DNA of 55,345 nt. Source: Planctomycetota bacterium (GTDB lineage: Bacteria; Planctomycetota; UBA1135; GCA-002686595). A program made the translations under genes and the position numbers. Positions 1 to 55,345 of the stretch are shown here, in pieces. Numbering within the stretch: the stretch's first letter is position 1; each line of letters starts with the position of its first letter. The notes under the pieces were generated by a model. The model was not told where the DNA came from. It ran no database searches and saw nothing but the letters and a program-made list of their open reading frames with translations. Location: assembly GCA_039200205.1 (NCBI GenBank), contig JBCCSK010000001.1:1-55345 (forward strand), read 5' to 3'.

Positions 1-143
1 CCCAGGTCGATCAGCGTGCAGTCGCGGACCCTGATGAACGTCTTCCTGTGCTCGTCGAGGAGCTTGGAGAGCCGCGTGTACTTGTGCTCGACGTTCCCCT
101 TGATCAGGAACGCGTCGGTGAGGAAGAGGTCCGAGCAGAACAT
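1..143 (-). CDS. Hypothetical protein, N-terminal part (runs off the left edge)
   Basis: Manual translation from ATG at 143: MFCSDLFLTDAFLIKGNVEHKYTRLSKLLDEHRKTFIRVRDCTLIDLG...; G/C at almost every third codon position; co-oriented downstream of folC. Not in the ORF track. Confidence 0.7.
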   Translation of the reverse strand, partial: MFCSDLFLTDAFLIKGNVEHKYTRLSKLLDEHRKTFIRVRDCTLIDL

Positions 144-51560: not shown

Positions 51561-53744
51561 TCAGTCCGAGTCCGCGCCCTCCTCGAGGAGACTCTCCAGT
51601 GCCTCGATCGAGGTCACGGGCGCGCGGCACGTGAAGTTCGAGCACACGTACGCGGTCGCGAGATCGTCGACCGCCCTCTGATCGGCCGCGTACGGGATCG
51701 CCGCGACGACGGCGTCGGCGGCTTGCTCGTCGAGTGGACGGAGCACGACGACATCGTTCGGCGCGAAGCGCTCGCCGAGCAGCCGAAGCATCGCCCGCGC
51801 GTCTGGCCCGCCGGGGTCGCCGACGATCACGATCTCGCGCGTCCGTCTCGTCTGGAAGTCGACCGCAGCGAGCAGCTGGGTCGACATGCTCGGCGCGCGC
51901 CCCACCTCTCCCCCGAACGCGCGAATCGTGCGCGCGGCGTGCTCCTCGTAGCGCGTCTCGCCTGTGAACCGCGCGAGGCGCTGCAGGACGCAGGCCATGA
52001 TCGAGTTCCCCGACGGTCGCGCGCCGTCGTAGACCTCCTTGGCGCGCACGATCAGCTGCTCGCCGTCATCCGGGCTGAGGTAGAAACCGCCGCTCTCGTC
52101 GTCGAGGAAGTGCTCCAGCGCGAGGTCGCAGAGCTCGCGCGCGCGAACGAGGTGCCGCACATCGTGGTTCGCTTCGTAGAGCGAGAGGAGGCCGTACGCG
52201 AGGTACGCGTGGTCCTCCAGCATCCCCTGGAGCCCGGCCTCGCCCGCGCGCCAGCGCTTGAGAACGCGCCCGTCGTCCGCGCGCAGGTTCGCCTCCGCGA
52301 AGGCGGCGGCACGCTCCGCGCGCTGGACGAGTTCGTCGTCGCCGAACGCTCGCCCCGCCCGTGCGAACGCGGCGATCATCAGCCCGTTCCAGTCGGTCAG
52401 GACCTTGTCGTCCTTCAGGGGGTGGATTCGCCCCTCGCGGGACTCGAAGAGTCGCACGCGCAGCGGATCCCAGCGCGTGCGCTGCTCGTGGGTGAGCGGT
52501 GCGCTCAGGTGCAGGATGTTGCGGCCCGTCCGCTGACGAGTCGCCTCGTCGCGGTAGTTGCCCTCGGCCGTGACGCCGAACGTCTCGGCGACGAACGCGG
52601 CGTCGTCGTCCCCGAGAACGCCGACGATCTCTTCGAGCGTCCAGAGGTAGAACAAGCCCTCCTCGCCCTCGCTGTCCGCGTCCTCCGCCGAGTAGAACCC
52701 GCCCTCGGGCGAGGTCATGTCGCGCTCGACGTAGGCGAGGATCTCGCGCGCGGCGCGCTCGAAGTCCGGCTCGCGCGTCACGAGCCAGGCGTCGACGTAC
52801 GCCATCGCACACAGCGCCTGGTCGTACAGCATCTTCTCGAAGTGCGGCAGCAGCCACTCGGAGTCGGTCGAGTAGCGGTGCATCCCGAGCCCGACGTGAT
52901 CGAACACGCCGCCGAGCCGCCAGGCGCGCAGCGTCCTGGTCGCCATCCGCAGCGCCTTGTCCGAGCCCGTTCTCGCGTGCTGCCGCAGCAGGAAGCGCAC
53001 CTCGTGCGGCACGGGGAACTTGCGCGAGCTGCCGAACCCGCCGTGAACGGGGTCGAAGCGCGAGGAGAGCTCGGCCTCGGCCCGATCGAGGTGCGTCGCG
53101 CCGAGCGCCGCACCCGGCGCGCCGCTCTCACGCTTCGCAAGCTCGGCCGTGATCGCATCGGCGGATCCGACGACGCGTTCGCGATCGGTCGACCACGCCT
53201 CCGAGAGCGCGGGCACGAGCTCCATCATCCCGAAGCGCTGCCCGACCGATCGCTTCGGGTAGTACGTGCCGGCGAAGAACGGCTTCTTGTCCGGCGTCAT
53301 CACGACCGTCATCGGCCAGCCGCCGCTGCCCGTGAGGGCCTGGGTCACCGACATGTAGAGCTGGTCGATATCCGGGCGCTCCTCGCGATCGACCTTGATG
53401 CAGACGAACGCGCCGTTCATGAGCTTCGCGACCTCGTCGTCCTCGAAGCTCTCGTGCTCCATGACGTGGCACCAGTGGCACGTCGAGTAGCCGATCGAAA
53501 GGAAGACGGGGACGTCGCGCTCCTTCGCCAGCGCGAACGCCTCGGGCCCCCACTCGTGCCAGTCGACGGGATTCCGCGCGTGCTGGAGCAGGTACGGGCT
53601 CTTCGAGAAGACGAGCCGGTTGAACTCGTCCCCGCCGTCCGCGGGGAGCTTCGCGACCTCCGCGGCACTCGGAAGCGGCGCGCGCACGTGCCGTTCGTGT
53701 TCCTGGGACATCGAGAGAACGGCGAGGACGAGCGCTGAGATCAC
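51561..53744 (-). CDS. yyaL: YyaL/SSP411-type thioredoxin-domain plus six-hairpin protein
   Basis: [62 protein letters not shown] and [11 protein letters not shown]; short hydrophobic N-terminus; GTGA overlap with the upstream gene. Confidence 0.92.
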
Positions 53745-54133
53745 GCCTGCGTGAGCTCGCCCAGCTTCTTGATCAGGTACGGCGGCGTGACGACTCCGGA
53801 GTAGCCGTCGAGGAAGTTCCCCTCCGCGTCCGCGAAGAGCACGAAGGGCAGCATCATCGCGTCCTCCAGCTGCATCGCGAGCTGCATGACCTCGTCCTCC
53901 GGCTCATCGCAGTCGGACGCGAGGGCCACGAAGTTCTCCTGAAGCAGGGGCGCGATGTCGGGGCGCGGAACGACAGCCTCCACGAGGCTGCGGCACTGGC
54001 TTCACAACTCGCGACCGAACTCGATGAAGATCTTCTTGCCCTCTGCAGCCGCGGCCGCCTTGGCGTCTGCGATCGAGGTGTGCCATTGGAGAGTGCCGCG
54101 GTCGTCGAAGTGCGGATGGCTGGAGCTGGACAT
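53741..54133 (-). CDS. Thioredoxin-like probable selenoprotein (U44-x-x-C47), 130 aa
   Basis: Manual translation from ATG 54133: [57 protein letters not shown]...NFVAL...[11 protein letters not shown]...; the UGA (54004-54002) sits at the first position of the redox motif and the frame continues into the track's 80-aa ORF. Confidence 0.85.
53973..53991 (-). promoter_or_regulatory. Putative bacterial SECIS element
   Basis: mRNA gcagccuc-GUG-gaggcugu, an 8-bp stem beginning at nt 11 after the UGA, with the apical loop starting with G at nt 19. Confidence 0.75.
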
Positions 54134-54193: not shown

Positions 54194-55345
54194 TCACTCC
54201 CTCTCCAGCCGAACGACCCGCGGCCCCGGTTCGACGGAGAGGCGAACCTGCTTCAGCCCCGGCGCACCGAGGACGAACTCCGACGCGAGCGCCGGCGGCG
54301 CCACGATCGGGAGCGCCCGACCGTCGTACCTGACGCGAGTCGGATTCGTGTACCACGCGTTGGTTCCACCCGGGGCGGCGAACGAAACGTCGAGCGCGGG
54401 AGGGTAGCCGCCCCCCGGCCCTCGACGCGCAGCGCCATGACTTCGTGCCCGTCGAAGGGGTCCCAGGAGAGGAGCCGCGGATCGCGGCAAGCGCGTCCCG
54501 GCTCGACGACCAGTTCCGCGAGCGACGCAAGCTCGAGCCAGCTCGCGGCCCCTCCGAGGGCAGATGCAGTGATCTCGTAGACACCCGGTTCGAGCCCCTC
54601 CCAGACCACTGCGCCGTCGACGGGCGACGTGCCGAACCGCGTGCTGGACCGGCGGTCCTTCTTCAACGAGAGGATCACGTCGAAGCCGTCGACCAGGTCG
54701 CGCGAGGAGGAGGCGCGGGCGCGGAGAGCAGAGCCTGGAACCGCCGGGGCCACCTGGACCGCGATGGACCCGCCCCGCTGCACGACGATGCGACGTCGCT
54801 CGCCCGGCCGGAGCGTGACCTCGTCGAGAACGGCGTAGGAGCTCCCCGGAACGAGTTCGAATCGGAACGAGGCGGTCACCTCGTCGCCCAGCTGGGGATC
54901 GAACGCGACGCTCATCTCGCCGTCCCGCCCGGACATCACGCTGGGGCCGTCGATCCACTCCTTGGACGGGAAAGAGGGGAAGCCGTCGGGGAGGCCCTCG
55001 ATCGGGGGGGGCGGCCTCGCTCGGCCTGGCGAATCGAATCGACGCGGAGATCCCGAAGACGGGTTGCTCGTCGACGTCGACCAGGACGACGGTGAAGTGG
55101 TCGTTGCGATCGTCGTGCGCCGGGGGATCGAGCGCGCTCACGCTCGTCGCAGAACCGGCCTCGCTCGCTGCAGGAACTTCGGTCGTCCGGTCGACCTCAG
55201 GTGTACGACGGACACGGTTCGTCGGCGTGACGAGGTCGGCTTCGGATGCGACGTCGTCCAGTCGATCCATTGACTCGACGGGCGTCACGTCCGTTGCGGC
55301 CGGTCGCTCGGTGCGCCGTACCGCCAGCGCCGCGACGACCACGAC
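54194..55345 (-). pseudogene. Membrane-anchored protein with carboxypeptidase-regulatory-like beta domains, interrupted by two compensating homopolymer frameshifts (5' end off the window)
   Basis: The protein-like frame switches at the G8 run 55004-55011 and returns at the C6 run 54411-54416; 'WEGLEPGVYEITAS' is typical of these domains. May be assembly error rather than a true pseudogene. Confidence 0.6.

Follow-up and report, generated by a model that had tools for sequence, protein, structure and literature searches.

A predicted thioredoxin-fold UxxC selenoprotein, annotated in pieces, in a planctomycete genome

An in-frame TGA in the middle of a small gene for a thioredoxin-fold protein raises the question of whether the gene is broken, consists of two smaller genes, or encodes a protein into which selenocysteine (Sec) is inserted at the UGA. 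Such a gene is located on the minus strand at positions 53741..54133 of a stretch of planctomycete DNA of 55,345 nucleotides, the whole of which is called the window below. The original prediction, made from the nucleotide sequence alone, read this gene as a selenoprotein of 130 amino acids with a UxxC motif, and this reading is now supported by the residue found at the corresponding column in homologs, by a hairpin that tracks the codon and by the presence of the Sec machinery in the genome.

When the frame was read again, its original description proved to be accurate. It begins with an ATG at 54133, continues through 43 sense codons to a TGA at 54004-54002 and then through AGC-CAG-TGC to a normal TGA stop (53743-53741), which makes 130 amino acids with a single in-frame TGA; all features of the gene named below are on this minus strand. 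The in-frame TGA is codon 44, predicted to encode Sec, and opens the putative active-site motif U-S-Q-C (UxxC, U44 to C47; 53993..54004), which adjoins a helix of residues 45-54 (DSSP of the structural model). The orphan ORF of 80 amino acids in this region, with a GTG at 53983, is the in-frame continuation past the TGA of codon 44, and its GTG "start codon" is the loop (53983-53981) of a hairpin at 53973..53991. This hairpin, an 8-bp stem with a GUG loop, was predicted to begin 11 nt after the UGA and was indeed found at +11..+29.

The codon at 54002-54004 was checked in assemblies, and they contain TGA. It is identical in the assemblies of runs X1 and X2, both of which are possibly the source of the window itself, and is also present in a contig of X4, which belongs to a different study (151 nt, depth 2). 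The word share of the gene in RNA runs was only 0.04-0.05, with no run above 0.05. A search for a sigma-70-like promoter and for a relevant terminator detected neither. The gene upstream (54194-55345, minus strand) is broken into frames and has a weak carboxypeptidase-regulatory-like match; contigs of X1 and X2 agree with the window where they cover it, and a contig of a related strain in X3 has single-base indels relative to the window near 54416 and 55010.

A search of databases gave 417 protein matches, and the best 120 were examined at the column of codon 44. All 120 of these full-length homologs (127-157 amino acids) have Cys there, as a part of CxxC, and Trp was never found. Nucleotide loci were taken from a set of 60 relatives (30 loci, window included) and from species genomes that were scanned (the 80 best of 166), and the removal of 22 duplicates from these 110 left 88 distinct loci, window included. 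TGA occupies the column in 52 of them, TGC in 33 and TGT in 3, which is the pattern of Cys or TGA, with a conserved hairpin, that the original prediction had anticipated. The same TGA is shared across 52 loci at 52-99% identity, and no second internal stop was found in any of these genes. It is present in 17/17 same-genus genomes, the 18 same-genus TGA genes being near-copies and not independent observations, and also in the complete genome of the cultured Saltatorellus ferox Poly30 (76% identical). Another cultured strain, Engelhardtia mirabilis, has TGC. The family is narrow, with matches in 27 of the 251 genomes sampled from the phylum, including the exported clade considered below.

It could be supposed that the TGA is a nonsense mutation or an assembly error and that the locus is a pseudogene or a pair of small genes. 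Standard translation does give ORFs of 43 and 80 amino acids, databases hold such pieces, and the upstream gene of the window is itself frameshifted. Among 120 short database matches, 87 end exactly before codon 44 and 33 are C-terminal halves; public records contain "hypothetical" pieces of 43-44 and 60-80 amino acids, including those of S. ferox Poly30, whose fragment of 43 amino acids is recorded as "hypothetical protein Poly30_05560". The same records bear out the expectation that standard pipelines would mis-annotate the gene. However, a TGA that recurs in 52 loci without another internal stop, always replaces the catalytic Cys, precedes a covarying hairpin and stands in the complete genome of a cultured strain is difficult to reconcile with such an accident, and this explanation, to which we attach almost no credence, is already largely refuted.

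The hairpin has the structure GCAGCCUC-GUG-GAGGCUGU and includes one G-U pair. According to the legend of Figure 2 in PMC13188914, the consensus of bacterial SECIS elements (bSECIS) comprises a loop of 3-9 nt, a stem of 4-16 bp, G in the first two loop positions, a spacing of 16-37 nt and a minimum free energy (MFE) of -7.5 kcal/mol or lower. The window hairpin lies within all these limits, with its loop of 3 nt beginning with G, 8 bp, UGA-to-loop spacing of 18 nt and MFE of -12.0 kcal/mol. As evidence of a SECIS element it stands only in part as originally put forward: it fits the consensus and covaries, but the hairpin of a single sequence is weak evidence and becomes strong only through covariation. 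Relative to the baseline of a genome with 70% GC, its folding energy is unremarkable (z of 0.02 for 55 nt, -1.50 for 42 nt and 0.32 for 77 nt), and z fell to -2.54 only when a 28-nt fragment trimmed closely to the hairpin was folded. The exact geometry, i.e., seven pairs between +11..17 and +23..29 and GT or GG at +19, follows 24 of 99,362 TGA triplets of the genome and, at an equal rate, 43 of 172,195 TGC triplets. A search against Rfam gave nothing real at E<=1.

The case for the hairpin is therefore based on its conservation and not on folding energy. Among the 52 TGA genes, 50 retain all seven outer pairs of the stem, compared with 2 of the 36 Cys genes, and a null model of synonymous-codon resampling expects an intact stem in 3.6 of the 52 TGA genes; an MFE of -7.5 kcal/mol is reached by 51/52 and 11/36 genes, respectively. 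Two TGA genes (L040 and L113) have an imperfect stem. The two Cys genes with a perfect hairpin (L081 and L095) are each sister to a TGA gene, which suggests a recent change from Sec to Cys. Covariation was found at the pairs +13/+27 (A-U 27, G-C 14, U-A 10) and +14/+26 (C-G 29, G-C 23). For 15 diverse TGA loci chosen by hand, RNAalifold recovers the same helix; 99% of cells pair in this register versus 31-59% in registers slid by 1-3 columns, and the covariation score of these loci was reached by none of 500 shuffles, a control that takes no account of relatedness. In a tree inferred after masking of the codon and hairpin residues, the stem tracks the codon in about 7 of 9 phylogenetically independent TGA/Cys pairs, opposes it in none and is uninformative in 2 (sign test, p ~0.016).

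The search for selA, selB, selD and tRNA-Sec (UCA anticodon), also suggested by the original prediction, found all of them above family cut-offs in the genome assembly (6.17 Mb, 71% complete), which its homologs identify as planctomycete. The gene selA is directly upstream of selD (G000:C59:8048-10236, minus strand), and selD has an in-frame TGA of its own, which forms part of a UxxK motif. Since prfB, which encodes the release factor RF2, is present (contig C188) and 45 of the 52 TGA-form genes of the family also terminate at TGA, UGA is still a stop in this genome. Codes with UGA as Trp do exist in some bacteria (PMC13462651), but the idea that UGA specifies Trp or Cys here, whether through reassignment across the genome or through near-cognate read-through, is very improbable in view of this continued use of UGA as a stop, the presence of tRNA-Sec and the invariable Cys in the 120 homologs. 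Judging by the comparison of homologs and by the gene content of the genome, codon 44 is very probably read through as Sec.

Within the family, the residue seems to have changed repeatedly between Sec and Cys. The best tree has 19 changes of the Sec/Cys label, with at least 9 on well-supported branches; this tree, built from few columns, does not separate gain, loss or transfer. The gene selA was found in 49 of 51 other TGA genomes, in 34 of 36 Cys genomes and in 30 of 31 further relatives (28 without a strong family match and 3 with distant or broken ones). Its presence is nearly universal and does not discriminate between the forms, and the switches therefore occur in hosts that keep the machinery. 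A role of the protein in selenium metabolism was considered and dropped, since selA is no more common together with the gene than in relatives without a strong match.

An exported sister clade (proteins P0267-P0312) shares the HPxFxD and GRxx(C/U)xxC signature and in addition has a hydrophobic leader and a longer C-terminus. With 21 of its 24 loci parsed, the hairpin was intact in 5 of 6 TGA genes (L164, L166, L167, L173, L175 and L177) versus 0 of 5 TGC genes (L169-L172 and L174).

Concerning the protein itself, it exceeds the cut-off of 27 bits for three Pfam families, namely Thioredoxin_7 (PF13899, 45.9 bits), DUF255 (28.9 bits) and, marginally, Thioredoxin_2 (PF13098, 27.7 bits). Its AlphaFold model (pLDDT 93) shows a thioredoxin fold in which (C/U)xxC precedes a helix. 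In 80 aligned sequences, both Cys columns of CxxC and the column of Pro96 are invariant, and the family signature HPHFDDxGxLxW (residues 6-17, 54083..54118; H6, P7, F9, D11, L15 and W17 invariant) and L95-P96-F97 (53843..53851) are invariant or nearly so. L95-P96-F97 aligns with the YPT/TPT motif of PDB 2kuc and 2lst and presumably occupies the position of the cis-proline loop of thioredoxins. Fold, (C/U)xxC before the helix and this conserved putative cis-Pro position, identified by its alignment column, place the protein among the PF13899 oxidoreductases. No signal peptide was found before HPHFDD, the highest hydrophobicity being 0.81 over 11 residues. The closest folds (Foldseek, TM 0.6-0.7) are DsbD gamma, the Thermus thioredoxin 2lst and the DUF255 domain 3ira; profile matches to known structures have E of 1e-8 to 2e-4, and identity to characterised thioredoxins is only 11-24%.

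It may be concluded, with a probability of about 0.94, that the gene encodes one probably cytoplasmic selenoprotein of 130 amino acids with Sec at UGA-44, a predicted thiol-disulfide oxidoreductase. Action as a disulfide reductase is probable from these comparisons and, in our opinion, the best guess at its role is that of a cytoplasmic housekeeping disulfide reductase. By analogy with the SelB pathway, a complex of SelB, GTP and Sec-tRNA would bind the GUG-loop hairpin 18 nt downstream and insert Sec at codon 44, and ribosomes failing to recode would stop and release the fragment of 43 amino acids; in E. coli, Sec recoding succeeds for 30-40% of ribosomes (PMC4513850). By analogy with thioredoxin chemistry, the selenolate of Sec44 would attack a disulfide of the substrate, Cys47 would resolve the resulting intermediate, and the selenylsulfide would be reduced again, most simply by the thioredoxin reductase encoded in the genome.

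A different explanation accepts the insertion of Sec and supposes that UxxC serves to bind or carry selenium or a metal, or that the protein is a non-catalytic partner of a DUF255 protein, without being a disulfide reductase. The gene of such a protein (Thioredox_DsbH, 727 amino acids; 51561..53744, minus strand) is the downstream neighbour in the window, and its GTG start overlaps the stop of the selenoprotein gene (GTGA), as is the case in this genus. Among the closest folds are thioredoxin domains from DUF255 proteins that are uncharacterised, 3ira for example, and the low identity to characterised thioredoxins also speaks for this possibility. However, the invariant CxxC and Pro96 columns are the layout of active thioredoxin-fold oxidoreductases, a DUF255 gene is directly downstream in only 26 of 88 loci (22 TGA and 4 Cys), and the occurrence of selA in relatives mostly without a strong match argues against a link to selenium metabolism. 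We consider this explanation unlikely and prefer the disulfide reductase, with the overlapping DUF255 protein as a candidate partner in this genus only.

Other neighbours give no firm indication of a substrate, since the neighbourhoods vary between lineages: besides DUF255, the next gene is of the purH type in 29 of 88 loci and a class-V aminotransferase in 14. The latter was tried as a cysteine desulfurase or Sec lyase and rejected; it matches transaminase models. On the upstream side, 30 of the 88 loci have prfB in the same orientation, at a distance of 400 nt or less in 20 of them, within flanks of only 1.5-4 kb. One example (L052:2888-3928) exceeds the cut-off of TIGR00020 and has the SPF motif and the CTT-TGA-C frameshift site. 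An RF3-like gene is upstream in 6 other loci.

These positions could mean that the gene is a part of a UGA-sensing cassette, in which selenium supply and the level of RF2 would together decide both the synthesis of the redox protein and the access of ribosomes to the next gene. The upstream prfB would sense RF2 by its own +1 frameshift at CTT-TGA-C, and the overlap of the selenoprotein stop with the DUF255 start would couple the next gene in this genus. The idea stands on the frequency of prfB upstream and on this overlap, and is weakened because prfB is not specific to the Sec form (19 of 52 TGA and 11 of 36 Cys loci), because prfB of the window genome lies elsewhere and not beside the selenoprotein gene, and because RF2 is reported to compete poorly with Sec (PMC4513850). 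We regard such a cassette as a long shot; if it were true, the recurrent changes between Sec and Cys would serve as natural on/off tests of this control.

A hairpin of identical register accompanies the UGA in five other genes of the genome, one of the VPGU type and four of the FG-GAP type. The 24 TGA triplets with the exact geometry include those of the VPGU-type selenoprotein gene and of two FG-GAP genes, and two further FG-GAP genes pair at 6/7 positions. The FG-GAP genes, which are FG-GAP/ASPIC-UnbV (CRTAC1-like) genes with an in-frame TGA and a GUG-loop hairpin, are located on contigs C260 (G000, minus strand, TGA at 1117; L122), C8, C103 and C385 (L123). Their relatives have TGA at that column in 29 of 30 fetched loci; 112 of 120 database matches are cut at the TGA, and the remaining 8, of full length, carry Cys (2), Glu (2), Asn (2), Leu (1) and Arg (1). 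They are absent from Table 1 of PMC13188914. The gene of the VPGUxxT type is thioredoxin-like (G000:C178, minus strand, TGA at 958; L121:608-1141) and scores 212 bits against NF041383 (cut-off 275), its frame having 178 amino acids versus 287 model positions. In other genomes, a homolog of the family stands beside two TGA-bearing FG-GAP genes (G041:C2:184479-190251), and a family gene lies ~6 kb from selA (G036:C13:15319-23061). A tRNA-Pyl(CUA) given by Aragorn (G000:C131:4093-4169, minus strand) is probably spurious, with mismatched cloverleaf stems.

The results add a family to the catalogue of bacterial selenoproteins and correct the annotation of its split "hypothetical" pieces. The family is a clean system for studying Sec/Cys evolution, in which SECIS is kept or lost together with the codon. 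As both forms are represented in culture (S. ferox with TGA and E. mirabilis with TGC), the choice of Cys in a Sec-capable organism is directly testable. The short hairpin of fixed register, common to several genes of the genome, provides an inexpensive pattern with which to look for more selenoproteins in planctomycetes.

Thioredoxin-fold selenoproteins with UxxC are among the best-known classes of bacterial selenoproteins (PMC13188914; PMC2398784), and the present family is apparently an uncatalogued one of this well-known kind. Table 1 of PMC13188914 (119 families) has no row for PF13899 and does not name the family, which could be filed under its generic PF13098 UxxC entry. Passages of the deep-Sep paper (PMC12013277) and of the GOS paper (PMC2398784) do not name it either, and a search of the literature found no description of it. 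The Poly30 genome was screened for BSepDB (PMC13326102), whose family table may contain the gene.

The fold and UxxC are common to this protein and to the PF13098 class, known as "thiol:disulfide interchange protein" (PMC13188914, Table 1) or "Trx-like 2" (PMC2398784), whose Pfam cut-off the protein exceeds by a narrow margin. It differs in having PF13899 as the best Pfam match, the HPHFDD signature and no signal peptide, a distinction drawn from the description of the class. Sec thioredoxin (PF00085, UxxC), experimentally verified according to PMC13188914, is likewise small and cytoplasmic and presumably has the same chemistry. No PF00085 match at E<=0.1 was obtained for the window protein, which places it outside Sec thioredoxins. 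The active site of thioredoxins is of the WCGPC type, unlike the GRE-x-U-S-Q-C site found here.

Related Thioredoxin_7-like domains occur in the NCBIfam models Trx7/PDZ (NF041199), VPGUxxT types 1 and 2 (NF041382/3) and TsoB (NF045694), but these have other Sec motifs (CxxU, VPGU) and architectures. Weak matches to NCBIfam models were found for up to 78 of 80 family members (best E of 1e-8); in release 20.0 the window protein scores 18-29 bits against cut-offs of 275-805 (29.4 versus 300 at best), with no model near its cut-off, and it is 29% identical to the VPGU protein of its own genome. DsbD gamma, 2lst, the putative disulphide isomerase 2kuc and 3ira are alike in fold, but they are Cys enzymes whose identity in the fold search is 15-21%, and the gamma domain of DsbD lies in the periplasm as a part of a membrane protein. 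Finally, the E. coli fdhF-type SECIS, which acts within the ORF together with SelB, likewise forms a hairpin just 3' of UGA with G-U opening the loop; compared with it, the window hairpin is shorter, with a single stem of 7-8 bp and a fixed start at +11.
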